NCBI GenBank assembly: GCA_951406725.2
Contig: OX597816.1
Location: 60,078,001 to 60,142,000, forward strand
Reading direction: 5' to 3'
Length of the DNA: 64,000 nucleotides
Source: Octopus vulgaris
Taxonomy: Eukaryota
The notes under the pieces: generated by a model
The model's database searches: none
What the model was told of the DNA's origin: nothing
The model's input: only the letters and a program-made list of their open reading frames with translations
Made by a program: the position numbers and the translations under genes
Part shown: one piece after another, positions 13,929-40,219 of the stretch
Layout: every line of letters begins with the position of its first letter
Position numbering within the stretch: the first letter of the stretch is position 1

Positions 13929-13968
<40 letters not shown>

Positions 13969-15810: not shown

Positions 15811-15830
15811 GCCATGGGCAATTTTTATTT

Positions 15831-16088: not shown

Positions 16089-16139
16089 ACGGGCATATGG
16101 TGTAGTGGTTATAGAACTGTATTATGGGGAATTTTTATT

Positions 16140-17141: not shown

Positions 17142-17507
17142 CTGTCAAGTGCTGAAGTGATTGTAAAGGAATGTGAGATGAAGTGTTTTGCTCAATGAGA
17201 CAACACACCAGCCGATCCAGGAATTGAAACCACAGTTGCCAGATTGTGGGTGCAATACCCTAACTACTAGGCCATTTAGTATAATTCTGAGCACATATAT
17301 TAACACAAACATGTATACATAATTTCTTGCATACTATGAAAAAAAGGTCACAAAACAGGCATAATCCCATGAAAGTCACTTGGTTAAATATATATATATA
17401 TATTGATAGAAAAGGTAAGACAACAAAAGAATGAAAGAGACCTCGATATTATGTAAATAGAGGAATTTATATGTAAATATAATATGTGACAATTAGTCGG
17501 TAGCCAT

Positions 17508-17568
17508 GATAAAACCCCGAGTTTCAGATGTTGGGGCGGAAACCCACGCCACCATCTCCTCAGTTATC
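17508..17568 (-). ncRNA. Type-I hammerhead motif, left arm of the inverted repeat
   Basis: Minus strand GAUAA-CUGAGGA-gaug...cauc u-GAAA-cucgggg-UU-UUAUC. Confidence 0.6.
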
Positions 17569-17594
17569 CAGTCATGGCATTTTTTTGATGGCCA

Positions 17595-17655
17595 GATAAC
17601 TGAAGAGATGGCAGCATGGGTTTCTGCCCCGACATCCGAAACTCGGAGTTTTATC
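17595..17655 (+). ncRNA. Type-I hammerhead motif, right arm of an inverted repeat
   Basis: GAUAA-CUGAAGA-gaug...cauc c-GAAA-cucggag-UU-UUAUC; GUU triplet. Confidence 0.65.
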
Positions 17656-18264
17656 ATGGCTACTGAATAATTGTCACATATTATATTTACATATATATAT
17701 ATATATATACATACATATTTTCAATTCTCAGATCTATTGGCTTTATATTCTTACATATAAAGAGTAAAGGATAAAGACTCCACTTTATTCATGAATGACC
17801 ATAGGATTGCGTCGAGGAAGTTCTCCCCGAGACACAAGTCCAAGCAAGATTGTTTATGGATGACCAGTAGTTAACCAAGCATACCAGCCGCCCCTCACCA
17901 TACCATTGATGTTATCCAAGAGAAAGGTAAAAACTGATACAGTTTGTCACCAATGACATCGCAACTCATTTCTACAGCTGAGTGAACTGGAGCAATGTGA
18001 AATAAGTGTCTTGCTCAAGAACACAATGCAGAGCCCGGTCTGGGAATGAAACTCAGAGCCTCATGATTGTGAGACTGATGCTCTAACCACTGAGTGATGT
18101 GCTGGTGCCATGTAAAAAGCACCCAATACTCTCTGTAAAGTGCTTGGTGTTAGAAGGGGCATCCAGCCATAGAAACGAGGCTTATTCAGGCTGGAACCCA
18201 GTACAGCTCTGCAGCTTGCCAGCTCAGGTCAAAAACTCTCCAAACCATGCCAGCCATGCCATAA

Positions 18265-18302
<38 letters not shown>

Positions 18303-18304
18303 TT

Positions 18305-18846
18305 GTGACACTTGTGAAGACCTGTTGAGGCAAGTGAAAATCAAACCAAATCAAAATAGATGAATATCAATGGAATTTGTATCTTTGTGGTACCAGTGCC
18401 GGTGGCACACAAGAGAACCATCCGAACGTGGCCATAGCCAGTACCGCATCGACTGGTCTCCGTGCTGTGGGCACGTAACAAACACCATCCGATTGTGGCC
18501 GTTCGCCAGCCTCATCTGGCACCTGTGTCGGTGGCACATAAAATACACCATCCGAGCATGGCCGTCTGCCAGCCTCGTCTGGCACCTGTGTCGGTGGCAC
18601 ATGAAAAACACCATCCGAGCGTGGCCGTTCGCCAGCCTCGTCTGGCACCTGTGTCGGTGGCACATAAAATCACCCACTACACTCTCGGAATGGTTGGCGT
18701 TAGGAAGGGCATCCAGCTGTAGAAACACTGCCAGATCTGACTGGCCTGGTGCAGCCTTCGGGCTCCCCAGACCCCAGTTGAACCATCCAACCCATGCTAG
18801 CATGGAAAACGGACGTTAAATGATGATGGTGATGATGATGATGATG

Positions 18847-18848
<2 letters not shown>
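18305..18848 (+). mobile_element. RTE-family 3' end with 63-bp internal tandem subrepeats
   Basis: acaccatccga..gccagcctc..ggcacctgtgtcggtggcac at 18482, 18545 and 18608; ends ggacgttaaa(tga)n. Confidence 0.8.
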
Positions 18849-19399
<551 letters not shown>

Positions 19400-19552
19400 G
19401 TTATATTATATTAGAGACAAAACCACTATTATGCAAATCAAACAAAGAAAGACTTAAGCCAATACATAATATATAATATTTTACTATAAAATTGGATTCA
19501 ATCCTAAATCTGATTTTTCCCTGTAAATTTGGATTTATTCCCTAATATTTAT

Positions 19553-19600
<48 letters not shown>

Positions 19601-20345
19601 TTTTTCTATCTTTTAGTCAGTAGACAAGCCAGTGCCCATACACACACACACACATATATATATATATCTATATTTTGTCTATTTATAAACCTAACAAAAG
19701 AGGTTTGAAATATTTTGGAAGAATAAAAATAAAGACAACCATGCAGAGAAACAGAGTGCAAATCAGCTGCACAATCAGTACAGCGCTATAACTCTTTGAC
19801 TGTGTAAACACTGGATAATAAATGTAATTGATCTCATTGAATACATGGTTAATGTACAAATAACACAGTATATGGTTTCTTTTGATAGAAATTGGATAAA
19901 TGGAAGATGGAATCAGAATGAGAACAATAGGTTGGGTTTTTGTTGTTGTTGTTGTTTTTTTAAATGGTATAACGAGTTTCTTTGTGACGACTGGTAAGTA
20001 CAAGATTAACCTCATTGAGTGTGTATGCATTTCTGCAATACTCTCTCTCTCTCTTTCTTTACACACACACATATACTTATCTTATCATATATACATATAT
20101 ACATATACTTACATACACACACACATATGTGCGTGCGCGCACACACACACACACACATTATATGTATGAATATATGTTTGCTTACACACAAACATATATG
20201 TATGTGTGTGTGTGTCAGTGTTTCTGAGTGTGAGTATGAGAAATTCATCCAATCTCACCTGGTTTGGAAATTTGACGTAAAGCAAGGATGCTGATAATAT
20301 AAATTGCATGCACACTCGCGCACGCGCACACACACACACACACAC

Positions 20346-20494
20346 ATGTGGCTGGGTGGTTCAAAGCTTGCTTCCCGACCATGTGCAGTCGCAGGTTCAG
20401 CCCCACTGCAGGAGAAAAAGTCTTTTGCTATAGCTCTGAGCTGACCAAAGCCTTGTCAGAGGATTTGATTGATGAAAACTGAAAGAAGCCCATG

Positions 20495-20530
<36 letters not shown>
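20346..20530 (+). mobile_element. SINE family A, 5' half, diverged
   Basis: gtggctgggtggt..ggttcagcccc..ctgaccaaagccttg..aaactgaaagaagccc. Confidence 0.7.
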
Positions 20531-20610
20531 CTTTGTTTTGCCAACATATGATGATTAATTATTCCCACTTAATTATGGATGCTCTCTTAAAATAAACTAT
20601 ACTATGGTAG

Positions 20611-21180
20611 ATACTATGAGAGAAATTCTCATTCTGGCTTTTGGTGCAAAATGCATTGTTGCTTACATTGCTAGTGGGGAGACAAATCTCCACCATCTTC
20701 AGCACTAAGACCACCAGATCACATGATTTCAACCTTCCTTGGTCTTGTCAATGATGTATCCTTGACTGCTAGAGATTGCAGCGACTCATCTCTCTGCCAG
20801 CGATATATAGTAAAACAGTGCCAGAACAGGTACTGGAGTTGCAATTAAAAAAATATATATTAGCAACAGAGGTAGGATTAATACCAAGAGGTAAGATTTA
20901 TTGCCACTTAAATGTGGATGTTCTGTTAGAACAGACTATACTGTAGGAGATACCATGAGAGATACTCTCCTATAGGCTTTTGGTGCAAAAATTCTCTCTT
21001 GTTTGTATCACTAGTGGGGAGATAAATCACCACCTTCTCCAGCCTTGAGACCATCAGATCACGGGATTTCGATCTTCTTTGGTCTCATCAATGATAGGTA
21101 CTTGACTGCTAGAGATACCAGTGACTCATTTCTCTGCTGGTGATATAGAGGAAAACAGTGCCAGAACAGGTGCTGGTGTC
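20611..21180 (-). repeat. Diverged direct repeat (about 230-bp units, 340-bp period), each unit with a decayed hammerhead
   Basis: Units 20611-20840 and 20951-21180 share ggcttttggtgcaaaa, ctagtggggaga, cttgactgctagagat and aaaacagtgccagaacaggt; hammerhead-like motifs at 20711-20757 and 21051-21097 on minus. Confidence 0.75.
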
Positions 21181-21644
21181 ATGATTGTAAACAAGAATCA
21201 CTGTCATATGAGCAATGCTGTTCATTTCCAGTCTTCCACAATAAAATGTCTGGACAAAGGGAAATATTACGTTACTTGGAAACAGTTGAGTGTTGGCAAC
21301 AGGAAGTACCTCTGCCTCAACAAATTCATCTGACCCATGCAGGCATGGGAAAGTGAATAGTAAATAATAATGATATCTATGTATTTAAGCATTATGGAAG
21401 CGCATGAGTATGTGTGTATGTATGTACATACATATGTATGTATGTATGTATGTATGCATGCATGCATGTATGTATCAATGTATGTTTGTTTGTATGTATG
21501 CATCACCACCACCACTACCAGCACCAGCACAACCACCACCACCACCACTACCACCATCATCATTTAACATCCTTTTTCCATGCTAGCATGGGTTGGACAG
21601 CTCGACAAGAGCTGACATACATTATTTATATACATACATGTATT

Positions 21645-21959
21645 TTATTTATGTCTGTTCCTTCTCGAGCCATGCCTGGGTCATAAGGGCCAGTTTCCTG
21701 GTTTCCTTGGCGTATAGGTTCTCCACCTGGACGGGACGCCGGTCCGTCACAGGTGAGCTGCAAGATGCAGCAGGAAAGAGCAAGAGCAAGAGAAAGTTGT
21801 GGCGAAAGAATCAGCAGGAGTTCGCCATTACCTCCTGCCAGAGCTGCGTGGTACTTAGGTGTTTCGCTCATAAACACACACATGGCTTGGTTTGAAATTC
21901 AAACCCGCGATCCCTCGTCTGTGAGTCCGTTGCTCTAACCACTAGACCATGTGCCTCCA
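21645..21959 (-). mobile_element. tRNA-derived SINE family B; other copies 23385-23684, 24195-24436, 27443-27741
   Basis: Minus-strand head GGAGGCACATGGTCTAGTGGTTAGAGC...GGGTTTGAATT (A/B boxes) and a shared body. Confidence 0.8.
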
Positions 21960-22895
21960 TTTCATTTATGCCTAAACATTTTACACACATACACACACAC
22001 ATACACACACACATACATATATATATGCATTATGTATGTATATCTATGTCTATATATCTTGAGCATAAACATGCATATTTTGTGTATGAACATATGGAAT
22101 ATTCTCATATACTATAAGCACTTTTACCATTAAGTTATTTAAAAGTGTCATTGTTTTTAAACCTGATGATCTCTAAGGCCTATATATAATTAGTTAATCC
22201 TGCATTAATTAATTAGAAGGAAACTGGGCTCCTGACAAATTATAAATAATACAAAGAAACACATTTTTATCTCTTATATCTTTTTTCTCTGCCTGTGACT
22301 ATGTTTCTTTTTAATACAATTGTACAATATAGAATTTCTTCAATTGGAATTTACCTATGATTTTTCGAAGTAGATTCCATTGGGTCATGGCATATACATT
22401 TTTTTCAATTTAACCCCCAATTAAGCAAAAATTCGAGAAAACTCAATATTTTACGATTTGCCTCTCTCATTTCAAATGCTTTGCTCCTGCTATTACCACA
22501 CTTTCTCCTACTTTCTCTTTGCAAGTGTATACCACTATCATATCCTCTTTCTGTAACTCTTATTCAACATCACACATTCTGTTACTTTCTCTTATTAATG
22601 CTTAAACCAATCCTCAAAAAAAAAAAGGCAACAGAGATCAGTCGCTAACTTTTGGTAGTATTCATTGGCGAGCGTACTTCAGTTGTCAATTGTTGAAAGA
22701 AAGAAATTGTAAGCTAAGAAGGTGTGTGTGTGTGTGTGCGTGTGTGTGTGTGTGTGTAGGAAGTGAAGGATAAAAATATGGCAAGAAGTGGACAGATGTA
22801 CATATATACATACATACATACATACATCCATACATACATACGTGTGTGTGTGTGTGTGTGTGTGCGTATGTATGTGTATTAATGTGTGTGTGTTA

Positions 22896-23263
22896 TCTCT
22901 CTCTATATAAAGCTGAAGTTGTCTGTGTGCAGCAGGTTTGGTAGCCTTCAACTAACACTATCTCCTCCGAGACCCTGCGGTGCAAGTTGACTAAAATTGA
23001 GAGTATGATAGAAGAAGATAAAATTCAAATCGGACCATGTTAACACCAAAAATTATTTACATAAAAAAGGTGCTTTTTTCTATGAAAATCCTTATTTTTT
23101 ACGATTTTTTCACTGCTGTGTCGCCACTTTTCGGTGTATTTCAACCAGAAAAATGTTTACTTGAAGAGAATAACAAGCTACATAATGCAAAATTTTTACT
23201 TTTCAAAAATTCCAATTCCAGCGGGTTGAAACAAACCCGAGCAACGCCGGGCGATACTGCTAG
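22896..23263 (+). mobile_element. Non-autonomous Helitron-type element
   Basis: A|TC start, 3' hairpin CCCG-agcaacgc-CGGG (23236-23251), 9 nt before CTAG|T; A/T insertion site without TSD. Confidence 0.75.
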
Positions 23264-23384
23264 TTCTATGATAAAATGAGAAATTATGCAGGGATTGTTA
23301 AGTGAGATTAATGTAAAGAGAAATACATCAGAGAAATGAATTATGATTGAAGCTACTTGTTCCAGTTGGATAACTTTTTATTTT

Positions 23385-23684
23385 ATTTTATGCGCCCTTT
23401 TCAAGCCTAACTAGGTTCATGGGCCCGGTTTCTGTGGCATATGTGTTCCCCCCAGCTGGACAGGACGCCAGTCCATCGCAGCATTACTCAAGATACAGGA
23501 AGAAAGAGTGAGAGAAAGTTGGGGCGAAAGAGTACAACAGGGGTCGCCACCATCCCCTGCCAGAGCCTCGTGGAGCTTTTAGGTGTTTTCGCTCAATAAA
23601 CACACAACGCCCGGTCTGGGAATCAAAACCGCGATCCTCTGACTGCAAGTCCACTGCCCTAACCACTGGGCCATTGCGCCTCCA
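23385..23684 (-). mobile_element. SINE family B variant
   Basis: Head GGAGGCGCAATGGCCCAGTGGTTAGGGC...GGTTTTGATTCCC on minus. Confidence 0.75.
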
Positions 23685-25636
23685 CAATTGGATAACAATT
23701 GGATAACTGCAATACATTTAATACTTTTATGCAAAGTTGTAGGAATATGATACGGACTGCATCAGGACTATCTTTTGGTGTTTGCAGATCCAAGCACTGC
23801 ATAAAGGAAATGAGCGCTTAATCATCATTGACAAGACCAATAAGCCTGAACCAATTTTTGATAGTTTGATATCTCATCTGCATGCACCACAACTACAGAT
23901 TGATAGGTAACTGAACTGGTTAATCCTAGCCATTGATAGTTTGTTGACTCAGCATCTAGTGATATTTGCTATTAACAAAGTAAGTTCATCTGTTGAAATA
24001 GTTCACATCCATCTCATGATTTCAATGTGACCAAGACTTGGATGGTTACCAGGTGTTAGGCCTTTCCAAGAGGCCACTGGTGATTTGTTTGTGAGCTGTT
24101 TGTTTCCATATTCACAGCTGACCTCTATTTGCACACATTAGCATAGCCAGGACTCTGATAGATGCTTCTTCTCTGGGTCAGAATAAAAAGTTACCTTCTT
24201 GAGTTATGCCAGCTCATAAGGGCTGGTTTCTTGGCTTCCATGTCATATAAGTTCCTCACCAGGATGGGATGCCAGTCCATCATAGGATTACTCATTTTTG
24301 TCAGCTGAGTGAACTGGAGCAATGTTAAATGAAGTGTTTTGCTCAAGAATGCAGCGCATCGCCCAGTCCAGGAATCAAAACCACAATCTTATGATCATGA
24401 GTCTAACGCTCTAACCACTAAGCCAAACGCCTCCGCATGGGTCAGAATAGACCTGGAAACAATAGTGACTAAGAGGTGGTTCTACACTTCACAAAATCCT
24501 GCAACTCCTGAACCAGGGCCCCACAACTGGATGCAGTTTAAAGTTATCCCCAGGACAAGTAGGCACTTACTCCAATCAAAATGTGATAAATTTATGTTAT
24601 TGATGGCCACCACAGAGTGCAGTCCTTGTTACCATGTGGTGGCTAGTAATGACCCTGCAATGACCCTACGAGATATGCCAGCAGAGCACAAGCTCTTGAT
24701 AGGGCCTCCCAGGCTGGACAGATCAACGAACAGAGGCCAGGGTAATATGGACCACCTCTTCCAAGAGGTAAAACTGAGGTAGCATCAGGCCAACAACTCT
24801 CCCTAGAAAAAAAATCACTACTTGATATTTCTATCAAAGACAATTTAAAACTGAGAGAGGAAGACCTTCTCTCAGGGGGATGGACAGATGACAAAAAGAC
24901 TGCTCAGAGCCAAGAACAGTGAAGAAAAGTTGTTGATGCCCTCTGCTCCATAGGGACTGATGGGCTTAACCAGCACCAGGGTCAAGGAAGCCCAACCTAT
25001 CAATAACAATATGTTACCAATGGACTTGGCTTCCTGGATCCTGGTTCTGTAGCACTTGTTGCACCTATCTTAAAATTGCATTGACTATAAGTGTATCTTT
25101 GTACAAAATTAGCATAGAATATATATATATATGTTTTATTCCAACTAAATTAGCTCTCTTCAATCATTAACATATGTAATTTATCTTAATATCTGAGACA
25201 TTGTGATAATTAAAGTCAGTTTTGGTAGCAGCAATGGGTCACAATATAGGGAAACAATAGACAGCTTTGTTATAATTCTGACAATTAACACCAAAGTTGT
25301 GTACAGGCAAGTTATCAAGTAAAAACTTGCAAATTATTCACCAAGAAGCAGATGGAACTAATTAAGTTGATTGCAGATGTATCTGTATAACTTCTGAAAC
25401 ATTTTGTTTAGATGAGAATTTTAAACATTAGAATTTATTTTAAAGGATAATTAACAATACTTAATGAGGTATATTAATTCAGAATGATGAGAAACAAGTT
25501 TGATTTTTTTACTTGCCATATGATTATAAATCATCAAAATGGAAGCTTGAGCAAATGAGCAAGGCCTTGGCACAGTCATTTGGCTTTCTCAAATGAGCAG
25601 CCAAATCTCTTTCATATCATACTCAACCATTTTAGG

Positions 25637-26585
25637 TTGGGCAAAGTTCAGAGAGCTCCTACTTCTGAGTGAAAGGCAGATTGTATGATGATGCCTGTGC
25701 GTGAAAAGCCATGCTACATGGCAGTGAAACATGGACTGTGACTGAGGACATGTATAGGCTTGAAAGAAATGATGCTAGTATGCTTTGCTGCATGTGCAAT
25801 GTTAGTGTGCATGTATGACAGAGTGTAAACGTCTTGAGAGAAAAGTTGGGCATAAGAGGCATAAGATGTGGTGTGCAAGAGAGATGACTGCAGTGGTATG
25901 GTCATGTAATGCGTATGGATGTGGACAGCTGTGTGAGGAAGTGCTGATCTCTACAAGTGGAAGGAAGCTGTGGAAGAGAGAAATCCAAGAAGACCTGGGA
26001 CAAGGTGGTAAAGCATGATCTGCTAATGTTGGGTCTCACGGAAGCAATGACTAGTGACTGAGACCCTTGTTGATATACCGTGCTTGAAAAGACCCGGCAA
26101 GCTAAATGAAACCATAGTTGTGACTATTATCAGTGTCATGTAACTGGCACCCATGCTAGAGGCATGTAAAAATCACCTTGCGAGCACTGGACCTCACAGA
26201 GGCAATGTGGCTGATCCCAGTGTCATGTAACTAGCACCCATGCCAGTGGCTCTTAAAAAGCACCTTTTGATCATTGGGCCTCACAGAGGTAATGACAAAT
26301 GACCAAGACCTTTGGCAGTATACTGTGCTTAAGAAAATCCATCAAGCCAAGTGAAATTGTAGTTGTGGTAGATAATGGTGTCACACAAACTGGCACCTGT
26401 GCTGGTAGTATGTAAAAGCACCCATTAAACTCTTGGAGTGGTTGGTGTTAGGAAGGGCACCCGACTATAGAAAGCATGCCAAATCAGACTGGAGTCAAGT
26501 GCAGACTGGAGTCAGCATACCAGCTCTGGTCAAACCACCCAACCCATACCAGCATGGGCAACAGACGCTAAATGATAATGATGAC
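25637..26585 (+). mobile_element. RTE-clade LINE 3' fragment
   Basis: Decayed WAKFREL..KGRLYD..AMLHGSETW..RLERNDASML..LREKLGIR..LQWYGHVMRMD, then the family 3' UTR and (TGA)n tail. Confidence 0.85.
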
Positions 26586-27113
26586 TAATTGGTCGATGTA
26601 ATTCTAAATGTTCTATAAAATAGGAGAGTCATGGCTGGAATACATATAATCATAGTTCTGCTCATTCAGAGCTGGACCAAGGCTAAATAATGACAACAGT
26701 TCTGAAGCTGTTGTCCAGCCTTCATGTTTTAATGTTTCCAACATTCACTTTATATTGACCTTTCACTTTTAAAACATGTCTGTTCCATAAATTAATCATT
26801 GAAGAGGTTCGCACGTGAAGTTTTAAAATGGAAATTAATGGAAAAAATGGACGCTCTAAAAAAAAAATGAAAATGAAAAAATATTCCATTTTGAAGCAAA
26901 AAATAATGCAATGTTCTAAAAATTTTATCAAATGAACATTTACTTCACAAAATGATTTTATGAGTGAAACTATATATAAAAAAAGAGATTTTGGCTCATA
27001 TGATCACAGATATAGTTGTGAGGTTGCAGAATTAACTTTGTAATCCCATGGTCCCAAAGGCTCTATAAGCAACAAGTAAAAAAAATGGTCCAAAGTGAGA
27101 CATATAAGATGTA

Positions 27114-27148
<35 letters not shown>

Positions 27149-27290
27149 ACACACACACACGCATGCAGACATGCAAGCAGAAACAAGTAGATGCACACAT
27201 ACACACAAGCATGTCTACACACTCATACACACATGCAGAGACAAATAAGAACAAGCATCAAGAGAAAAATACACAGACACATGCATGCAT

Positions 27291-27336
<46 letters not shown>

Positions 27337-27442
27337 ACACACATACATACACAAACATACACACACACATGCATGCAAAGACAGGCTTATACATGCAGAA
27401 GTACACACACACACACACACACAAACACACACACTCATATTG

Positions 27443-27741
27443 CTTGTTCCTTCTCAAGCCACACCTAGCTCATAAGGACCGGTTTCCCGGTTTCCTTGGC
27501 GTATAGGTTCTCCACCTGGATGGGACACTGGTCTGTTGCAGGTGAGCTGCAAGATGCAGGAGGAAAGAGTGAGAGAAACTTGTGGCGAAAGAATCAGCGG
27601 AAGTTTGCCATTACCTTCTACCGGAGTTGCGTGGAGCTTAGGTGTTTTGCTCATAAACATACACATCACCCGGTCTGAGATTTGAACCTGCGATCCCTCG
27701 ACTGTGAGTCCACGGCTCTAACCACTAGACCATGTGCCTCT
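27443..27741 (-). mobile_element. SINE family B
   Basis: High similarity to 21650-21959. Confidence 0.8.
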
Positions 27742-28033
27742 ACAGACACTCATATAGCGACAAACTGAGACAGAGAATGAGAGATCTTCATTTATAAGCT
27801 TTTTACATGTAGCTTTTTTGTTGTCAAAGATCAGGTCTAATTGAGCAAACTTATATAACATAAATGAGTCGATAGTTTGGCTGAAAGGCTCAGTGTGGCC
27901 CTAAATTAACTGCTTTAGATTTACTATGCTCTGCTTTACTGAAAACCATGTCACAAATGTTTACATTTCTGTACGTCTGCATTATTAATCATGTGGAGCA
28001 CTGTGGTGCAGCCTGTGAACGACACTTTATTCA

Positions 28034-28065
28034 CTAATCAGTGTATTGCTGTAGATCTGCAGAAT
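28034..28065 (-). CDS. Candidate alternative last exon (D-SADLQQYTD*) of the FAM155-like gene
   Basis: Minus strand: T-rich tract, (TG)n, ...cacaatcag|ATTCTGCAGATCTACAGCAATACACTGATTAG, with AATAAA at 28031-28026 just after the stop. Phase 1 compatible with the upstream exon. Very short, so could be chance. Confidence 0.3.
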
Positions 28066-28541
28066 CTGATTGTGAATACACACACACAAAAAATAGAAAA
28101 AAAAAAACCGGATACAGTGGACTGTGTGAGAAAGTAGAGAGCTGACATTTCTGTATGCTACTAAATATTGGCAATATGTGTTTCCCTGTACAATGTTTGG
28201 GTCTAATAAAGTGACCGTTGATACAGCAATACATTAGAGTTTCTTTTTCTTTTTTAATCTGGGTTGAATGGGTATGACGGTGTTGTCAGATTATGTGACT
28301 CAAGTATTTTCTATGTATGAATCTGTATAACAGTTTAGATTTTGTGAATGTAAGTCTATATATAATTTTTATAATTGGGTGTGTTACAGTATATAATTTT
28401 TATAGTTGGGTGTGTTACAGTGTGTGAAACAAGGTGGAAAAAAAGAGTACTCAAATACCAGTGGTAGAGTAATATGCTTTATTTAAAGCAGCAGAAAATT
28501 CAGTAACAGGTTTTGTTGAATTTTCTGCTGCTTTAAATAAA

Positions 28542-28589
<48 letters not shown>

Positions 28590-28804
28590 ATGTATATATA
28601 TGTATATATATATATATATGTACATATATATATGTATGTATATGTATATATATATGTATATATATATATATGTACATATATATATGTATGTATATGTATA
28701 TATATATATATATATATGTATGTATATGTATATATATATATATATATATGTACATATATATATGTATATAGATGTATATATATATATATATGTGTATATA
28801 TATA

Positions 28805-28971
28805 TCATCATCATCATCGTAACGTCCGTTCTCCATGTAGCATGGGTTGGATATGTATATAGATGTTCTGGGAAGCAGAGGCTGCACCAGGCTCCAGTCT
28901 AAATTTGGCAATGTGTCTACAGCTGGATGCCAAATTTAGACTGAGCCTGGTGCCTTCTGGCTTCCCAGAAC
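28805..28971 (-). mobile_element. RTE-family 3' end with internal fold-back
   Basis: (cat)n-aacgtccgttctccatg...; 28865-28910 is inverted at 28928-28971. Confidence 0.7.
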
Positions 28972-28973
28972 CG

Positions 28974-29004
<31 letters not shown>

Positions 29005-29020
29005 GTATATATATATATAT

Positions 29021-29460
29021 GTAGGTCCCGGGTTGAGTCGGGGTTAACCACAGTAAATAAGGTACTCAATACATAGCAGAGTAAATTAATTTATTTTATA
29101 GAAGGAGCTTCTACAGGACTAGAACTGTTTCACTCAAAAGAAATCATCAGGAAGCTAGGTGACAAGAATAGTTTTGGCATTTATACACTTAGGCAGGTTT
29201 AAGGGGTGGTGGTGGGGGACTTTTGGGGTAGGCATGGCGCAAACTATCATTCTTAGGGGAGTGGTCAAAGGAATCAGTGATAAAGTAGATAAAAGAATAA
29301 ATAGAATAATAGAGTTTACATACACATACCCACATACATCCATATACACATGTACATATACATTTACATACATCTACGTACTCACCCATACCCATACTCA
29401 TACATACACACAAATATCTACACACATATATATGTAAAATAAATAAATAAATATAAAAGA
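29021..29460 (-). mobile_element. Penelope-like terminal-repeat fragment with hammerhead
   Basis: Contains the 29106-29156 motif; partial copies at 13731-13790 and, inverted, at 31475-31696; preceded by (TA)n. Confidence 0.55.
29106..29156 (-). ncRNA. Minimal type-I hammerhead ribozyme motif (Penelope-like repeat), sense to host pre-mRNA
   Basis: AGCUUC-CUGAUGA-u uuc uuuu gag u-GAAA-cag uucuaguc cug-UA-GAAGCU: 6-bp stem I, intact core, GUA triplet, weak stem II. Confidence 0.75.
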
Positions 29461-29484
29461 GTATATACACCCCCATACACACAC

Positions 29485-29748
29485 GCTCTGCCAGCCTCGT
29501 CTGGCACCTGTGTCGGTGGCACATGAAAAACACCATCCGAGCGTGGCCGTTTGCCAGCCTCGTCTGGCACCTGTGTCGGTAGCACATAAAATCACCCACT
29601 ACACTCTCGGAGTGGTTGGCGTTAGGAAGGGCATCCAGCTGTAGAAACACTGCCAGATCTGACTGGACTGGTGCAGCTTTCGGGCTCCCCAGACCCCAGT
29701 TGAACCGTCCAACCCATGCTAGCATGGACAGCGGACGTTAAATGATGA

Positions 29749-29752
<4 letters not shown>
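29485..29752 (+). mobile_element. RTE-family 3' end, near-identical to 18566-18830
   Basis: Direct sequence match by eye. Confidence 0.8.
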
Positions 29753-29788
<36 letters not shown>

Positions 29789-29839
29789 TCATACACACTT
29801 ATATATATATATATATATATATCAACAATTGAGGGTAAA

Positions 29840-30324
29840 ATTATACCCTCAATTGTTGATATTATAATTCATTTCTCTCGGTCATACTGCCTCGGTTCTC
29901 GCGGTTAAAATATAATGTTTGCTAGATAGACCACGTGGGTGGAAGGGGAGTGCAGAAATTTACGCCTGCGCATTTTGAATTTGTTGACACTGTTAGTTGG
30001 AGTGGTTCATCTGAAGCGACAAGTTTGCTGATAGGTAAAGTTCCTTCTTTTTAGTGTTTCCAAATCCAAATTAAGAAATTTTGAGCTGACGAAAGAAATG
30101 CTGATTTTATTTGGCTAATCTTGAAACGTTAACGTACTCAAACGATCTATGTACTTGTGATATTTTTCTGTATTTACCTCCAAACCTTCGTGAGCTGTCT
30201 GGAGTAAGCATTATCTGAGAGAAATTTTTCTTTAAGTAGTAGAAACGCTAAGAAAATTTTTCTTGGCTGCTATTTCTACTAAGTTCAGTATGTGGCAAAG
30301 TAATTTATTTTACTAAGCCCTAAT

Positions 30325-30330
<6 letters not shown>
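29840..30330 (+). mobile_element. Penelope-like terminal-repeat fragment with one intact and two decayed hammerheads
   Basis: Intact motif 30080-30142; decayed ctgaagcg.. (~30011) and ctgagag..gaaac (~30215-30246); fold-back at 29821-29860; (TA)n on both sides. Confidence 0.55.
30080..30142 (+). ncRNA. Minimal type-I hammerhead ribozyme motif
   Basis: UUUGAG-CUGACGA-aaga...ucuu-GAAA-cguuaacg(palindrome)-UA-CUCAAA; all core positions consensus. Confidence 0.85.
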
Positions 30331-30360
<30 letters not shown>

Positions 30361-30366
<6 letters not shown>

Positions 30367-30523
30367 AGATAGGGGTTGAAAATTCAACCCACCATGGGAT
30401 AACATATATCCAATATACTGCTAGATAGGTACCCAACAAGACTAATACATAGATGTTAAAAATTGCCAAACAATCAGTTCATCTATTGTATTAGGATGGA
30501 CTTGGTGCAAACATAACTGTATC

Positions 30524-30554
<31 letters not shown>

Positions 30555-31186
30555 ATTAATAGTAATTTTTATTGACTTTTATAGCTTTATAATTTTATGA
30601 ACTGAACCATGGTTTTAATTATTATTATTATTTTTCATCTCCCTATGTGTTAGTTTTTTAAAACTATTAGCCAAATATGTTTAATAACTGTGCTTATTAA
30701 TATTAATATATACACTGATATATACTTTGTTTTATTTTGTTCTGTTTACCTTGCATTATTGTACCAATGAGTATTATATTATATAAGTGTAGCATTATGA
30801 AGTTTATGCATAAGTTTTTATATTTTACATTTTTATATTTATATGTATATGGAAAAATAAATTTTTTTCACAATTATAACAAATTTAATTCTCTGAAGAG
30901 GCCGTGGGGCATCCTTGTTAATGCCTCATTTATACCTACCTTTATGGCTTATAGGTTAAATGAGGTATGACTGCCCTCGCTGCCGAAACAGCTGTCAGAT
31001 TTGATTTAATTACATATTATATTTGAAATTTTATACTTATATCTCTTTGTCTATTTACATTTACTGTATATTTTGTATAATGCCTTTACTGATATGTAAT
31101 GGTGTAATAAAGTGTTGATTGGGTATCATCTGATAGTTGATGTTTTATTGATTTAAGTATGTTTCTCCATTTTCTAATTTTGTAGT
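30361..31186 (+). mobile_element. Penelope-like fragment with long-stem hammerhead
   Basis: Contains 30887-31002; its start (caacccac...tatccaatatactgct) is related in reverse orientation to the duplicated unit at 18890-19335; (TA)n on both sides. Confidence 0.5.
30887..31002 (+). ncRNA. Type-I hammerhead ribozyme motif with long stem II
   Basis: aauUCU-CUGAAGA-ggc..ggggca..[ccucauuua/uaaaugagg]..ugcccu..gcc-GAAA-cagcug(palindrome)-UC-AGAuuu; GUC triplet. Confidence 0.8.
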
Positions 31187-31222
<36 letters not shown>

Positions 31223-31694
31223 TATACATACATACACATATATATATTGTTTTTATTTGACCTCGACCAACGAAGCCGACACAGAGGTAGGTTTCTCCCA
31301 AGGGAGCTTGCTTAGCTGGCTTAAAAAACCATTTATTGCCCCTCTACATTCCCTTCTATCTTTCTACCCACTGATACGAACACAAATACTCACACACACA
31401 CACTCACACGCACACTCATACACATACACAGACGCACGTGTTATATTCATACATACATAAGTGTACCGACTAAGTGTACATGTGTATATGGATGTATGTG
31501 GGTATGTGTATGTAAACTCTATTATTCTATTTATTCTTTTATCTACTTTATCACTGATTCCTTTGACCACTCCCCTAAGAATGATAGTTTGCGCCATGCC
31601 TACCCCAAAAAGTCCCCCACCACCACCCCTTAAACCTGCCTAAGTGTATAAATGCCAAAACTATTCTTGTCACCTAGCTTCCTGATGATTTCTT

Positions 31695-31764
<70 letters not shown>

Positions 31765-31879
31765 GAAAACCGGTTTGAATAAATATATATTTATATATTT
31801 TATCAATTTCTCATTTCATAAAAATTTTCTTTCATTTGAGCATTCTGCATTTTTACAATTTTTCCTTGCTTATATGTAT

Positions 31880-31939
<60 letters not shown>

Positions 31940-31951
31940 ATTTTTAAATAG

Positions 31952-33150
31952 GTTACATGACCAGAGTATATTTTGTATGAATGTGTCAGTATTTCACTAA
32001 AGACTACATGACCATAGAATATATTCTATGTTTGCGTCTGTGCTTCAACACAGATTATGTGACTGCGAATATATATTTTCTATGTATCTGTTTCTAATTC
32101 AATAAAGACTATGTGCTTGTAAGTCTTTATTTTGTATGTGCTTTTATTCCAATAGATATTATGTGAGTGTAGTTATGGTTCGTATGTATGTCTGCATTTC
32201 ATTACAGATTACGTAGCTGTAAGAATATGTTTTGTTTTCGTGTTTGTATTTCAGCATAAATCATTTGGTATCTTCTGCATTGGATTACAGTCAAGCTGGG
32301 GCACCATCTTGAATGGTTTAGTCAGACAAATTAACCTCAGTGCTTTTATTTTTTGCTTTTTTTTTATGAGTTGAGTACATATTCTATCAGTCTCTATTGC
32401 CAAACCACTAAGTTATGGTGATATAAACAAACCAACACAAGTGTAGTGGTGGAGAACAAACACAAAGCTACACACACACAAACACACACACACACACACG
32501 CACACACTCATCCATCCATCCATCCATCCATCCATACATACATACATACATTCATACATACATACATAAATACATACATACATTCATACATACATAAATA
32601 CATACATACATTCATACATACATACAGACATATGTACATACATACATACATATGTACATACATACATACATAAATACATACATACACACACACACTCACA
32701 TACATACATACATTCATAGATACATACATACATTCATACATACATACATACATACACACATACATAAATACATACATACATACACACACACATACATAAA
32801 TACATACATACATACACACACACACACATACATACATACATACATACATACATACACACACAAACACATACATACATTCGTATAAATAACAGGCTTTCAC
32901 AAGTTTCTGTCTACCAAATCAATTCACAAGGCGGTAGTTGTCCTAGGGCTATAGTAGAAGACACTTGTCCAAGGCGCCACCCAGTGAGACAGAACACAAA
33001 ACCACATGGTTGCAAAGCGTGCTCCTTAACTACACAGCTATGTCTGGTAGTCGTATATTTCTTATGTGTGTTTTTATTTCAGTGTAGACGATATGACCAT
33101 AGTATATTTTGTATGTATGTTTCCTGTATTTCATTACAGAATTATTTCTA
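31952..33150. repeat. Degenerate ~50-bp minisatellite split by a SINE insertion
   Basis: Units like gactacatgaccatagaatatattctatg..tatttca repeat about 6 times (31952-32260) and resume at 33050-33150. Confidence 0.6.
32270..33045 (-). mobile_element. SINE family A with expanded (CATA)n centre
   Basis: Both halves recognisable around about 420 bp of microsatellite. Confidence 0.7.
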
Positions 33151-33929
33151 GATGATTGTAAGCATTTATAAGTGATTATATGAGTTTACAATAGAAGAAA
33201 TTTGCTAAAGCTGCCATATTGTGTGATCAAACGCATAAGAATGAGGCTGAAAAGCAAATCTTTTCAGCAACCACATAGTGATGCTTATGCTGATGTTGAA
33301 ATTGCAATCCAAGCCTACTTGAGACAAAGCCAAAGGAAACTCTGGTTCAAAGCACCTCAATCTAGTGCACATATTTCCTACAGGTATTAGTACAAAGAAG
33401 TTCAAACCAGATATCAGGAACTTCAACCTCACAAGGCTGAGCTTCTTCATGGACACTTGATCGGTTAGAAATAATAGCAATTTTCCTTAAATCCCACATT
33501 GATACTTTTAAAAAATGAAGAACATGTTCAATATAGCTCTAGATATCCATAACGATGGAATGATCACAAGTTGAGCACCTTTGATAATAGATCTGTTTAG
33601 TCAGGGCTGCAAAGAAAACCTTGAGTTCTACCCCATTTCAGACTAATTAATACAAATTAAAGTAAACATTTCTAATGTCGGCACCAAGCCAGAAATTCAT
33701 GGGACAGGGAATTAGTCTATCAAATCGACCTTAAGTACTTGACTGGTACTTTGACAACCTGTGAAGGATGAAAGGCAAAATTGACCTGGGTGAAATCCAA
33801 TTCAGAGCGAAGAGAACAAAACAAATTACAGCAAGGCATTCTAGCCAATGCTCTAAAGATTCAGCCACTTCACTGTCTTACTACTACTACTACCACTACC
33901 ACAACCACTACTACTTAATAGTATTAATA

Positions 33930-34500
33930 AATGCCCTGGCGCAGTACAAGGCACTGGTTCGCATGCCTTCGGATCTTAACTGATTGGAAGTGTTATCATG
34001 TACATTGTTTTGTCTTGATATAAAAGATGGGCTACAGCAAATATTCTGCTCTATACCACAGATTTGCATGTCAGTTGTTTGACCATAACCAGTTGAACAT
34101 GTCCCTTAGTGGCTGACAATATGTGCATTTCTGATCATGAGCAGAAGTAGTGGGGGAGCATCATAGCCATGTGTTGAGAGGGATTATTTGGGGTTTGAAT
34201 AATTCACCTCTGGAAACATGGGTGTTTCATTCGACATCCTTAAACAACCCTTATTCAGGGACTTTTTGAGGGGTATGGGCTACTCGACCAGAAGAAAATT
34301 CTAAGTGGGCCCCACCTGCAAGGTCGTGTGCTGTTTGTCTTGATATGAGATCACCATGTCACGTGCATATGGTTGTGATGCATGTGCCTGGTGTACCCCT
34401 ACCAGATGGGTAGTCATGATGGGTATACTGATCTTCGTATATTTGTACCCCAGTGTCACTTTGATGGCATGCACTGCTCTCTCACTCAATAATAATAATG
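33930..34500 (+). mobile_element. Dispersed ~570-bp repeat ending in (TAA)n; other copies 52254-52480 and 56025-56400
   Basis: Shared gggccccacctgcaaggtc...gggtagtcatgatgggtatactg...gcactgctctctcactcaataataat; 5' truncated with a common 3' end. Confidence 0.7.
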
Positions 34501-34631
34501 ATGATAATAATCATTTCAAAATATGGCACAAGACCATCAATTTCAAGGGAGGGGTGATATTGACCCCAGTGCTCAACTTATTTTACCGACCCTGAAAGGA
34601 TGAAAGGCAAAATCAACCTTGCTAGTGTCAG

Positions 34632-35300
34632 TTAGGAGTGAGAGAGCATTGAAAGCAGAGTAAAAAGAAAAAAACAAAGGAAGAAGCACAAAAAGGACAT
34701 GAAAAAACATGACACAATAAGGGACTTCACAACCAGTTCCATGTAGCCACTACAAAGGTTGCTGGAAAACATAGGTGGAATTGGCTGAAGAAAGAAACAC
34801 TGGAAAAAGAGACTGAGAGTGCTATAATGGCAGCACAAGACCAATCTTTGGCCATGAATTGGTGAGTCAACCTTAGGATTGAGCAAGTGTCTCCACTGTG
34901 CTGCATCTGTAACAGGCTGGATGATACCATTGCCCATATCATGTAAGAAAGCCCTAGACTTGCCCAAAACTACAATAAGTTGTGGTGTCATGATAAGGTA
35001 GAGAAAGTGCTACATTGGAAACTGTGCAAAAAGTGGGGGCTAGAGAGAGGCATGGTATGAAGACATGGTATGAGCACAAACTGCAGAGAGTGACAGAGTT
35101 GGAGACTTGTAAAATACTCTGGGATTTCCCAATCCAAACAGATCATGTGTTAGAGTTAGTGGTGGTTGACAAGATACACTACATGTGCTATATAGTTGAT
35201 GCTGCATGTTGCTTTGGCCCATGAATAGTCAAGAAGGAGGTTGAAAAAATAGATAAATACAACTGTCTTAAATACGAAACGACCCAGCTATGGAAAATGG
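34632..35300 (+). mobile_element. Second R4/Dong-like LINE relic
   Basis: KETESAIMAAQDQSL, HDKVEKVLHWKLC, WYEHK..CKILWDFPIQTDH, KKEVEKIDKY. Confidence 0.75.
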
Positions 35301-37089
35301 CAGGCGAGTGAATGAGCATGCGTGCGTGTAACTCCAAACCCATCACTTGAAAACCAATGTTAGCTTGTTTACGTCTCTGTAACTTAGCAGTTTGACAAAA
35401 GAGACTGATAGAGTAAGTACCAAACTTTAAAAAAAGCTAAGTACTGTGGTTTGTTAAACTGAAACCCAGCATGGTTGCAGTCCAATGACTGAATCAAGTG
35501 CAAAAACTTTTTCCTGACTTGGATTCCACTTGAGAAAATTTCAGCAGTGTCCTTGCCAGAGATGCTCAACAAAGACAATGTTAATTAAAGAGTATAACAT
35601 CATGAAGCATTTAAATTGGTATGGAATGTTACTTCTGTTATTTCCCCACCCATATCTGAGATGTTGATGAAACATTCCTTTTTTACCTCTACTTTCTTAT
35701 CAGTACATAATTTAGGATACATAATGTTTGATTAATTAATTAAGAACAAGCAGAAATGCAACATGCATAATAAAAGGTGTGAGATATACTACTATGCCAA
35801 CAAGATACATAACATCATTGAAAGAATTTTAAGGAAATATCTGGTCTTAACTTTTACAATCCCAACCCTCCTGAAATTGATATGATACAAATTCCCTATT
35901 TTAAAGTGATCTAAATTAAACCCTTCTATCAAAATTCCATATTTATCTACATTCCAAACACCAGTTTTGCTAAATTTTTCCTTATTTTCAAAATTAACTG
36001 GAACAACAGCAATGTATTTCAGCAGCTGTATGGTAACAAATGGGTAAAAAAACTTACAAATAGAAACAATGAGATGATTTATAGACTGATAAGCAATCAG
36101 AATGGATATTTTATAAGACTTGACCAGAAGAGGAATGTCAGTACCTATGAATTTTTTTTTTCAGCAGTGCTAGGCTTGTGACTGGTGGGAAAAATGAAGG
36201 AACATTTTGATATTGTCAGACCAGACACCTCGTCTGAATACTCTCAAGAGAGTTGAACTCAGAGGTATAGGAGGTGGTGTTTAAGTCTACCAGGTGGCAG
36301 TTTAAGTTTACAACCTACGAGCAAATCCAAGACATCTGTCGAACTGCCCCATAGTTTCTATCTACCCACTTTCTCCCACAAATTCTTGATCAATCCAAAA
36401 CAATGGTAAAATACACTTGCATTGTTGCAGAATGGGATTTAAGACAAGACCTACAGTTTGTGAAGTAAACATCTTCAGAACATGAACAGTTATAGTAGTT
36501 ATGAAGTAAATGAATCTCTCTAGATTTTGAAAATGAGTATTCCAACAATGGTTGGTGCAAATATGCGATCACACTTTTGCTTACCTACCTACGGTTAATG
36601 TAAATATACGATGTAGAGCTGCCCTACATCTATCACGGACTTTTTAGCGGCTAACATATGTTTACGTTCGCTATCATATACTTTATCTCTTGGGGTGCGC
36701 ACACTTGCCATCCCATGCATTATATTAGCTATTTTAGGTTATGTTCAAGTCATGAGACTAGCAGTAGACCAATGGCATGCGGATACTTTACATGCATAAT
36801 ACCGTGTTTTGAGTTGTACCACACGCAAGCTATTTTTTAAACTTGTGCATATCATATTATGATAAATAGCTTCACATAATTCGTTTTCATAAACCGGTAG
36901 ACATAAATGTACCATGCTGTGTTATTGTAATGGTGAACATAAATAGACACAAGCTCATTGGCACTTATGTGTTTGTGTGGCCTCATTAGACAAAAAAAAA
37001 AAAAATCGGAGCAGTGTCTCGCATGCTTCGGGTAATACCGGCATCAAGGGGTTAATTAATCGAAACTACCAGCTCACTATATTAGTATT

Positions 37090-37477
37090 TACCTGTTTTA
37101 GTCATTCGACTGAGGCCATATTAGTGTACCACCTTAGAGGGTTTTAGTCGAACAAATTGAACTCAGTACTTATTTCTTTTTAAGCTTGGTACTTATTTTA
37201 TTGGTCTCTTTTGCTGAACTGCTTAGTCACAGGGACATGAACAAACCAGCACTGGTTGTCAAGCTGGTAAATGAGAGACAAACATGGATACATACACATA
37301 CACACACACACATGACTGACTGCCACACAGTTTCCATCTACCATATACTCTCTCAAGGCATTAGTCATCTCAGGGTATAGGAGAAGATACTTGCCCAAGG
37401 TTCCACACAGTGAGATTGAACTTGAAATCATGTGGTAACAAAGCAGGCTTCTTAACCACACAGCCATGTCTGTGCCT
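37090..37477 (-). mobile_element. SINE family A, diverged
   Basis: Reverse-complement similarity. Confidence 0.75.
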
Positions 37478-37745
37478 AGATGTGTGTACTCTTAAGATAA
37501 TTCTTGAGCAGTATCAGCACGACACAATGTGTAAGACAAGACCAGACCTTTAATTTGCAAGAACAATCCATCCAAAAGGCTTTGCACAGTTTTCACTTCC
37601 TCACAAGGTTTGAGTCAACATGAAGTTATGGTAAAAAAAAAAACACTTGCTTAAGAAGTCATGCTTAAGACATCATGACTGAAAAGTGAACTTCTTAAAC
37701 ATTTGGTCGTGCGTTCATATTTATGAGATTAGTTAAGTAATCAAT

Positions 37746-38121
37746 GGTGCAGGAGTGGCTGTGTGGTAAGTAGCTTGCTTACCACCCACATGGTTCTGGG
37801 TTCAGTCCCACTGCATGGAACCTTGGGCAAGTGTCTTCTACTATAGCCTCGGGCCTACCAAAGCCTTGTGAGTGGATTTGGTAGACAGAAACTGAAAGAA
37901 GCCCGTTGTATATATGTATATGTATATAAATATATGTGTGTGTGTGTTTGTGTGTCCGTTTGTCCCACCACCATCGCTTGACAACTGGTGCTGGTGTGTT
38001 TACGTCCCCGTAACTTAGCAGTTCGTCAAAAGCGAAGTCCTGGGGTCGATTTGCTTGACTAAAGAGCGGTGCTCCAGCATGGCCGCAGTCAAATGACTGA
38101 AACAAGTAAAAGAGTAAAAGA
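37746..38121 (+). mobile_element. SINE family A
   Basis: ggtgcaggagtggctgtgtggtaagtagc...aacaagtaaaagagtaaaag. Confidence 0.85.
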
Positions 38122-39100
38122 ATGGATCACAAATGAAATACCACATAACTCAAGATTTTACTGGGGTGGTAAAGTCATGTCCTTACAATGATATCAAGCT
38201 TAGTGAAGAAAACTAAGTAGACAAAAGATCACATTCTCCATTCCACTGCATACACACACATGTACAACATATACATACAGCACAATCAATACATTCATAC
38301 ATTAATAAAACAATTAAAAACGAATATTTATAAATACACGTCTATTTCTGTAGACAATATCTTAGAGATTCAAGCAAACAATCTGGTGTTGCATGTAAAA
38401 TAATTAAAAGCAGCTGAAGGACAAGAACACCAGATGAAAAAAAAAAAAAAATCTATTTATCTCAACATAAACTCATGTTTGTTTATATCACTACATGATA
38501 TCATCAATGAAAGATTAACAGTTTAATATCATATTCTCTTCCCTACCAACTAACTCACATAATGATAACACCAAGTCTTTGCACCTTCTACACACATCCT
38601 TTTTCACAAAGCATATTGATCTGGAACAAATCCCAAACAAATGTTATGTTATCCAACACACTTTTATATTTCATACGGAAATAGTTACACATCCTTTAAC
38701 TACTTCTAACCTTAAGTATTCATTTTGCTTTGAAAATACCTTCACAATTTGATAATCCTCTACAGATATAATCGGCTATTCTACATGGTTTCTAATTCTC
38801 TTGCTGATTAGAATATTTCAACAATTTTTTTTTTATCTGACAGCACCAGATTTTTCCCCCCATTTCCTCTATTTTCTTCGCTGCTTCTTCATCCTCCATT
38901 TTTTTTTTTTATATATTCAAGCCTGCTGTTTTACAGGGATTCTCTGACTAGTAATGCATGCAGATTCATACCAATTTCTCATCTAACAAATGCTCATAGA
39001 TTTTCTAGCGTTCATTGTATCCTCTATAATCAATATTTGTTGATACAGTTTCGTTTCTATTCAGTACAGTTTGAGATATGAGAATATTGAGATAAAAATA

Positions 39101-39140
<40 letters not shown>

Positions 39141-40219
39141 GAGAGAGACAGAAAGGAAGAGAAATCTAATTGTCTATTCCCCAAGCTGACTTCATCTTTA
39201 CAGACAAAAATCATTCATTTAACTAGCTGAATAGAATTACTAGTAACTAATTAATTCTTTTCTATAAAGCAAGACTTCTTTAAAGATTTACATCTTTGAG
39301 TAGCTAACATTGTCAGGACAAATATCTAATTTCATTGAACATCTATCTTCCTCATAACTCATTTTTCTTTTCTTTTTTTTTTTCTTTTTTTTCATAGGTA
39401 GAGGGAAAATATTTGTACAATATTATCAAAACAAAGAGAAATGTGAATAGTATGACTATTTGTTTCTATAGAGGAAAAAAAAAATTGTTAGTTTGCCAGT
39501 GTAATAAAGGGGTTCTTTATGATGGTACATATTATGTTTTGTAATGTAGATTGAAGAAGAAAGAGAAACTAAGAAGTTAGCCATATCTGATGATGATGGT
39601 GGTGGTGGCAGTGGTGGTGGTAGTGGTGTAGAGAGACAAAGAGAGACAGAGAGAGAGGGAGGGAGAGAGAGGGAGGGAGTGAGAGAGAGAGAGAGATTAT
39701 GATTGAGAAATTGAACTAGAAATAAATGACTAATATCATTCTTGATTACAATCTGAGTTAAACTCATCTGTTTGTCAAGTAGCCAAAACTAGAAGGAAGT
39801 TTCTACATAGACAAGTTAACTGCCTCCTTACCATAAAAAAAACTGAACCAGTATAAAAAAAAAATATATATATATAATAAAGTGGAGTCTTGCCATATGC
39901 AATTAGTTATAATTACATATAATTAATTTCCATGAAAATATTAACCTCTACTCCACCAAAAGGAAAAAGAAAAGAAAAGAAAAATCAGAAACAAAACTAA
40001 AAATACACGAATGTCTTTATGGATTGTTATTTGTTTATGATAAAAATGAATGGATATGAATGCTACTAATATCACAGTTTTTTAGGGATCAGGAAAGAGG
40101 GGGCAATAGCTATGAAATATAAGTCTTATAGGTTTCAGGTTCAATCCCTATACTAGGAAGTTAAATCATCATCATTCTTATTTAACATCCATTTTCCATG
40201 CTAGAATGGGCTGGATGGC

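Follow-up and report, generated by a model that had tools for sequence, protein, structure and literature searches.

Three hammerhead motifs that lie close together in one intron of Octopus vulgaris are very probably the predicted ribozymes of young retroelements with TA-repeat ends—two autonomous Penelope-like element (PLE) families, here called F1 and F3, and one retrozyme family, F2—that came together by nesting in a single F1 copy. The window, that is, the whole stretch of 64,000 nucleotides that was analysed (contig OX597816.1, positions 60,078,001 to 60,142,000), contains the following host intron and hammerhead motifs.

12626..45117, minus strand: host intron with GT-AG borders, about 32.5 kb, of a NALF1/FAM155-like gene
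29106-29156, minus strand: HHR1, type I hammerhead of F1; predicted cut after 29112; host-sense
30080-30142, plus strand: HHR2, type I hammerhead of F2; predicted cut after 30136; host-antisense
30890-30999, plus strand: HHR3, type I hammerhead of F3; predicted cut after 30996; host-antisense
15889-15930, minus strand: fourth hammerhead motif, found by descriptor; a further family in the same intron; host-sense

The original prediction placed the motifs inside the intron of a gene for an ion-channel subunit. The flanking exons (45118-45283 and 12276-12625, minus strand) confirm this, matching NALCN auxiliary factor 1-like and FAM155A-like proteins, named from Octopus vulgaris and O. sinensis, at 98-100%; the subunit is thus an auxiliary one. 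A Pfam search of the host exon gave a Mid1 match below the cut-off only, and an alternative terminal exon at 9742-9786 (minus strand) matches a shorter NALF1-like protein (P0122). Because the gene lies on the minus strand, HHR1 is the only one of the three motifs that is carried in the pre-mRNA.

All three motifs combine the CUGANGA, GAAA, and UH core with three stems, of which stem I is open, the arrangement that defines a type I hammerhead. HHR1 has a stem I of 6 bp, CUGAUGA, a stem II of 12 nt, GAAA, a GUA triplet, and a stem III of 4 bp with an 8-nt loop; HHR2 has a stem I of 6 bp, CUGACGA, a stem II of 30 nt, and GUA; and HHR3 has a stem I of 3 bp, CUGAAGA, a stem II of 84 nt with covariation, and GUC. 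At the base of stem II, HHR1 has U-U and HHR2 has A-U rather than G-C; of the three motifs, G10.1-C11.1 is present in HHR3 only, and the window copy of HHR1 carries a U-G in place of the family's U-A within its 3-bp stem II. The motifs and their cut sites were recovered at the positions originally proposed, with next to none in shuffled sequence; the limits of HHR3 had been drawn at 30887-31002, which exceeds the core range by imperfect stem I pairs. The descriptor used (core, stem II, stem III, and three Watson-Crick stem I pairs) was tuned on these three motifs, and it found four motifs in the 64-kb window, whereas 60 dinucleotide shuffles gave 0.017 on average; among 1000 shuffles of 29001-31100, one motif appeared in 2 and three motifs in 0. 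A first, strict scanner returned only HHR2 and one loose match, because it required the first stem II pairs.

Two of the stems III had been described as palindromic. This holds for HHR2 and HHR3, but the stem III of HHR1 is also self-complementary, around a central CUAG. The perfect palindrome of HHR2 is present, yet it is a variant of the window copy: 38 of 53 aligned rows have a G at that place, which still pairs (G-U). For HHR1, HHR2, and HHR3, respectively, the predicted energies of stem III are -12.8, -11.6, and -11.1 kcal/mol as a self-duplex and -1.4, 0, and 0 kcal/mol in the monomer; each stem is thus modelled as weak as a hairpin and strong as a self-duplex, and action as a dimer is predicted.

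A covariance-model search, one of the checks proposed with the original prediction, failed to recognize the motifs: Rfam returned no hammerhead match at the gathering score or at E<=10, and the 54 rows at E<=10 were TA-repeat artefacts only. This silence is a library score and not a biochemical definition of the hammerhead. It nevertheless agrees with the view that the motifs are chance look-alikes in AT-rich repeats, devoid of ribozyme function, as do the isolated minimum-energy folds of HHR1 (z +0.76) and HHR2 (z -1.66), which are not the hammerhead fold, and the tuning of the descriptor to the same three motifs. We regard chance resemblance as very improbable, given the near-absence of matches in shuffles, the compensatory changes in HHR3, and the presence of exactly one motif per element unit, whose position and peculiarities match those published for the Hydra clade of PLEs (PMC8557442). 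Stem II of HHR3 does form in its isolated minimum-energy fold (z -4.73).

Conservation among genomic copies, on which the original prediction had been staked, was found for both stems and core. In eight F3 subfamily copies, the HHR3 core and stem III pairs are invariant, 94-97% of the cells in the 84-nt stem II are paired (slid controls, 25-43%), and two-sided changes occur at 4 of 34 pairs; shuffling reached the cell count in 1 of 500 trials and the pair count in 21 of 500. These eight rows are related and were hand-picked for divergence, so the covariation counts as support and not as a probability. Relatives of F2 at about 75-83% identity keep the core, stem I, and the lower part of stem II, with the upper part altered, in a compensatory way as judged by eye, while the variation of HHR1 affects N7 and loop II and none of its variants shows a two-sided change in a stem.

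The proximity of the three motifs is explained by the layout of the insertion, since F2, F3, and a SINE-like repeat sit within TA tracts of one F1 copy.

29021..29488, minus strand: 3' part of the F1 left arm, with the long end at 29021, the short-end site at about 29090, and HHR1, running into the 3' UTR
29489..29752, strand not assigned: high-copy SINE-like repeat, inserted at the first TA tract of F1
29819..29843, minus strand: inverted short arm of F2, carrying the long end
29844..30332, plus strand: right arm of F2, comprising most of a 565-nt non-coding unit up to the short end and TA
30360..30493, minus strand: inverted arm of F3, carrying the long-end tail
30493..31188, plus strand: right arm of F3, a 5'-truncated 3' UTR that runs up to the short end and TA
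31187..31471, minus strand: F1 left arm, resumed beyond the nested inserts
31475..31696, plus strand: inverted right arm of F1, 99.55% identical to 29136-29356 over 221 bp

The F1 insertion thus extends in two arms from 29021 to about 31700, and its inverted right arm stops within a second HHR1, in the loop of stem II, which leaves a broken half of that motif (31676-31696). In uninterrupted F1 copies, the sequence corresponding to 29488 is followed by that corresponding to 31187 about 70 nt away, across two TA tracts; in the window, the SINE-like repeat occupies the first tract, and the F2 and F3 inserts lie one after the other, in this order, in the second. Each window insertion carries one whole hammerhead. 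The original prediction spoke of three unrelated repeats, which does not hold: F1 and F3 both belong with the Hydra-clade PLEs (43% identity between their reverse transcriptases, RTs), and all three families end in (TA)n and insert in the same two-armed form. Its proposal of several distinct hammerhead-carrying families in the intron survives as to the three families, although they are nested in one F1 and do not reflect an accumulation specific to this intron. TA-ending elements themselves carry TA tracts where other such elements sit. In one F1 subfamily (L247-L252), the 3' UTR contains a fixed tail insert of F2 type, and nested inserts are therefore copied along with their host element. A DNA transposon, suggested by the 221-bp inverted repeat, was rejected on account of the variable inner junctions, RT open reading frames (ORFs), and unequal ends of the copies.

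Other repeats were observed in the same intron. A tiny F1 remnant at 13731-13791 (minus strand, host-sense) lies between TA tracts and runs from the 3' half of HHR1 to the short end, with the core broken; broken fragments at 14931-17144 (minus strand) resemble LTR-retrotransposon integrase and gag by eye; and a 76-bp palindromic repeat between TA tracts at 28472-28547, with copies elsewhere (L097, L100), looks like a further two-armed mini-insert.

Each motif retrieved dispersed copies from the genome, the best of them 96-99% identical. A 25-nt exact tag of F1 occurs 6,060 times and an 18-nt exact tag of F3 occurs 1,296 times, with 0 matches to either reversed control. Longer copies of both families have an RT ORF upstream of the hammerhead on the same strand; HHR1 and HHR3 are the predicted 3' ribozymes of autonomous PLE families. 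The intact ORFs comprise 713 aa in F1 (L250) and 947 aa in F3 (L164, with Asn-rich inserts), and frames of 955-962 codons are found at L150 and L163. Same-strand hammerheads flank the ORF in both families, 5,387 nt apart in F1 and 5,573-5,603 nt apart in F3; the distance from the upstream cut site to the start codon is 137 nt in F1 and about 518 nt in F3. The single ORF encodes an RT with YRDD followed by a C-terminal GIY-YIG domain (YIG). The Hydra clade is defined by RWK, DKT, a CxCx5C linker, CxxC, and CxH, and by the lack of Cx2-5CxxC (Craig et al., 2021, PMC8557442); the F1 and F3 ORFs show RWR (for RWK), DKT, YRDD, CxCx5C, YIG, CxxC, and CxH, and Cx2-5CxxC is absent from them (absence of CCHH judged by eye). 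Neptune and Nematis are ruled out by the linker motif. Insertions of F1 and F3 likewise have (TA)n targets and a 3' hammerhead, and consist of tandem and inverted truncated copies with a tail at one end, the tails being longer than published. By these motif traits, F1 and F3 fit the Hydra clade, labelled Hydra references having been compared by eye only. Pfam gave no RT or GIY-YIG match for five ORF pieces, and a search with the F1 protein gave 1,467 relatives among 8,000 scored, the best 120 of them at 37-54% identity and mostly unnamed.

F2 is a different kind of element. Its 22-nt exact tag occurs 453 times (reversed control, 0), and its copies resolve into a closed repeat unit of about 565 nt that is present as monomers, dimers (L082), and two-armed inserts, with same-strand hammerheads about 565 nt apart, one per unit. 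The unit folds strongly (z -6.7), and no ORF of at least 130 aa is shared by the F2 loci. The search for an F2 partner led to a sister retrozyme (763 exact matches in the genome) and to no ORF; sister units of 545-560 nt, about 75-83% identical to F2, form arrays with up to 12 hammerheads, and more distant relatives are present in arbitrary genome stretches. With its tandem units and a type I hammerhead in each, F2 fits a non-coding, non-LTR retrozyme whose circular form may be presumed. No autonomous partner sharing the F2 ends, and no pLTR homologue, was seen among the fetched loci. In the arrays, units are identical in 11 of 11 cases at L255 (G000:C1:71596000-71604500) and without mismatch in 5 of 5 at L217 (units of 546 nt and 560 nt), and between loci retrozyme units are 92-98.5% identical; recent rolling copying, local expansion, or assembly polishing could each account for the identical units. 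In contigs of four runs guessed to be RNA, the cut site of an F2 dimer is crossed and most depth falls over the tail, although ends, strand, and circles cannot be read from such contigs, which are uninformative on F2 circles; all three families are also covered by four other runs, whose kind is not recorded. Over the retrozyme hairpin and tail (L082:1910-1948), the guessed-RNA contigs show A>G and T>C differences in clusters, as expected from A-to-I editing of inverted repeats; such editing may be the cause, or they may be alleles.

The insertions of all three families share one anatomy. Each family has a short and a long fixed end, both downstream of the cut site and both running into TA, with the long end about 70, 95, and 170-190 nt beyond the short end in F1, F2, and F3, respectively. 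The two-armed insertions examined have arms that point outward, one ending at the short site and the other at the long site. Among selected inverted pairs, this pattern was seen in 20 of 20 small F1 inserts (one with its long end cut by another insert), in 9 of 9 F3 inserts, and in all 8 F2 inserts that could be scored clearly among 27 loci (2 were ambiguous and the rest showed one end only); the three inserts in the window conform to it, with the short arm of F1 damaged. Among the first 100 F1 tag matches, 46 lie in inverted pairs 41-80 nt apart, and 20 of the 23 such pairs were fetched for junction analysis. The arms join at AGCU, part of the 5' strand of stem I, or a few nt away from it in 14 of these 20 pairs (4 of the 14 being perfect palindromes), and all 16 informative cases have a loop variant common to both arms. 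The F1 mini-inserts with this junction at the stem I AGCU (L223-L242, G000:C1), palindromic and about 200 bp long, are very common, each with a long and a short end. Inverted pairs of F3 cluster at a spacing of about 1.1 kb, which implies that junctions concentrate some 550 nt upstream of the F3 tag, at a hot spot unrelated to the hammerhead. The idea that hammerhead dimers join two templates to make the arms is not supported, since the commonest F3 junctions lie far from the hammerhead.

Priming takes place downstream of the cut site, and copies cross it and often exceed one unit; the template is therefore either a re-closed circle or an uncut multimer. On the circular route, two hammerheads in a read-through transcript of a partial tandem would pair as a dimer through their self-complementary stems III, and the transcript so cleaved would be released at unit length and closed to a circle. 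The element's RT-endonuclease would nick (TA)n and prime at two fixed sites, and copying past the rejoined cut site would yield inserts that are inverted, 5'-truncated, or longer than one unit; F2 would borrow the enzyme of a PLE. We favour the circle over the uncut multimer as template, while cleavage, circles, and enzyme borrowing are all steps that we infer, and on balance we judge the sequence from tandem read-through RNA through hammerhead dimer and unit-length cut to circle to be somewhat probable. The single active dimer among 9 predicted Xenopus retrozyme dimers (Li et al., 2026, 10.64898/2026.07.22.740005) and the low activity of minimal PLE hammerheads tell against it. The same elements and the same nesting could instead have been produced from linear, uncut read-through RNA of tandem masters, with the hammerheads cutting rarely or serving just to trim the RNA and the retrozyme arrays growing in the DNA by unequal crossover. 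Every insert that reaches the cut site spans it intact, in line with such a template, and the monomer stems III are predicted to be unstable; in addition, weak cutting has been published for minimal PLE hammerheads (Cervera and de la Pena, 2014, PMC4209133), and hammerheads may merely parasitize PLEs (Craig et al., 2021, PMC8557442). We consider a linear template rather unlikely, as core and stems have been kept across subfamilies and the dispersed F2 arms, which often exceed one unit and sometimes do so on both sides, are more simply explained by circle copying. The window copies appear as truncated passengers that are predicted to cut poorly alone and do nothing for the host gene.

The density of hammerheads in the genome bears on whether this cluster is special. 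Forty arbitrary 10-kb stretches, taken at round coordinates, contained 14 motifs in 400 kb (none in 30 of the 40), compared with 0-1 motif in each of 8 shuffled sets, and one of them, L205, holds three motifs of two families within 650 bp. This density of about 35 per Mb extrapolates to a likely total of about 98,000 motifs in the octopus genome (Poisson range 54,000-164,000, wider with clumping) and suggests that octopus is among the hammerhead-richest genomes, a point of relevance to intronic RNA annotation in this animal. Two further motifs within 1.9 kb are then expected for about 0.2% of motifs, clumping ignored; triples are thus expected, and the cluster is ordinary. At least 12 further hammerhead families were observed; in many of them stem II measures 40-70 nt and stem III is palindromic.

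L173, L176, L183, L186, L188, L190, L196, L198, L199, L205: loci of further families
L101, L104, L112, L152: also loci of further families

Could HHR1 or the whole cluster have been co-opted to cut the NALF1-like pre-mRNA and so tune NALCN leak-channel levels? HHR1 and the motif at 15889-15930 are both on the transcribed strand of the host, and the HHR1 3' half at 13731-13791, on the same strand, is a possible dimer partner. However, the window copies are young (96-98% identical to their families) and some 16 kb distant from both splice sites, the orientation of HHR2 and HHR3 is antisense to the host, the U-G of the window HHR1 falls in a stem II of just 3 bp, and about one motif is expected in a 32-kb intron at background density. 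A regulatory role of the hammerheads for NALF is accordingly unlikely, and co-option in this specific form is highly implausible.

More broadly, and tentatively, octopus may possess a still-active system of Hydra PLEs and retrozymes that runs on hammerhead-made circles and has left about 100,000 hammerheads, with priming at two fixed sites 70-190 nt apart downstream of the cut site and with a hitherto unreported superfamily of retrozyme circles of about 550 nt copied by rolling reverse transcription into arrays of identical units; this is quite possible. If true, the intact ORFs and a small passenger circle would offer a ready system for studying the role of PLE hammerheads and the origin of inverted, tailed inserts. 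Two young families with intact ORFs, a 565-nt passenger, the end pattern, and the junction hot spot constrain any mechanism. Craig et al. (2021, PMC8557442) state that it is unclear what hammerheads do in PLEs with an endonuclease and that no in vitro system exists.

The occurrence of Hydra elements with hammerheads in octopus is already published: the same study lists Hydra-1_Obim of Octopus bimaculoides with a hammerhead and (TA)n targets (PMC8557442), and the hammerheads described here differ from it in sequence and thus belong to other families. That report was the only relevant one on cephalopod hammerheads that our literature searches returned, and they returned no cephalopod retrozyme; the supplements of PMC7229834 and of the preprint of Li et al. 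(2026), and file 1 of PMC4209133, may list octopus. The repeat annotation of O. vulgaris (PMC13282606) gives 31 recently active Penelope-like families and, in its passages used here, leaves ribozymes unmentioned.

Like the Hydra clade (PMC8557442), F1 and F3 have a single ORF with RT and C-terminal GIY-YIG, (TA)n targets, the linker motifs, tandem and inverted truncated inserts, and a 3' type I hammerhead, often with a U-U base of stem II (U-U in 14 of 26 Hydra hammerhead rows) and an ACAG/CUGU stem III. They differ from it in their units of 5.2-5.6 kb (mostly <3 kb in the published set), in the 947-aa ORF of F3 with its Asn-rich inserts, in the 84-nt stem II of HHR3, which is longer than in any Hydra row of the published table, and in tails of about 70, 95, and 170-190 nt (published, 30-40) (PMC8557442). 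With minimal PLE hammerheads (Cervera and de la Pena, 2014, PMC4209133) the motifs share the palindromic stem III and predicted dimer action, the location in terminal repeats, the many families per genome, and pairs on opposite strands a few hundred bp apart; unlike in those, whose activity is low, the stems III are longer (3-4 bp plus loop) and G10.1-C11.1 is found in HHR3 only. The same authors had proposed a circular template for PLEs (PMC4209133). F2 resembles metazoan non-LTR retrozymes in its non-coding head-to-tail units with one type I hammerhead each (PMC7229834) and in coexisting with PLEs and spanning monomers to multimers (PMC7229834; Li et al., 2026, 10.64898/2026.07.22.740005). 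The units here are of 546-566 nt, compared with about 300 typically (PMC7229834) and 51-972 in Li et al. (2026), who report cleavage in 1 of 9 predicted Xenopus retrozyme dimers (10.64898/2026.07.22.740005); F2 also departs from metazoan retrozymes in its PLE-like, two-armed inverted inserts with fixed TA ends, in the parent pLTR, of which none was found, and in its circles, so far presumed. F1, F2, and F3 are explained as novel families of already described kinds of element, and what is new lies in the detail: the greater length of the Hydra units, a stem II of 84 nt, a retrozyme superfamily for which our literature searches returned no cephalopod report, the density of motifs, and the two-end pattern of insertion.
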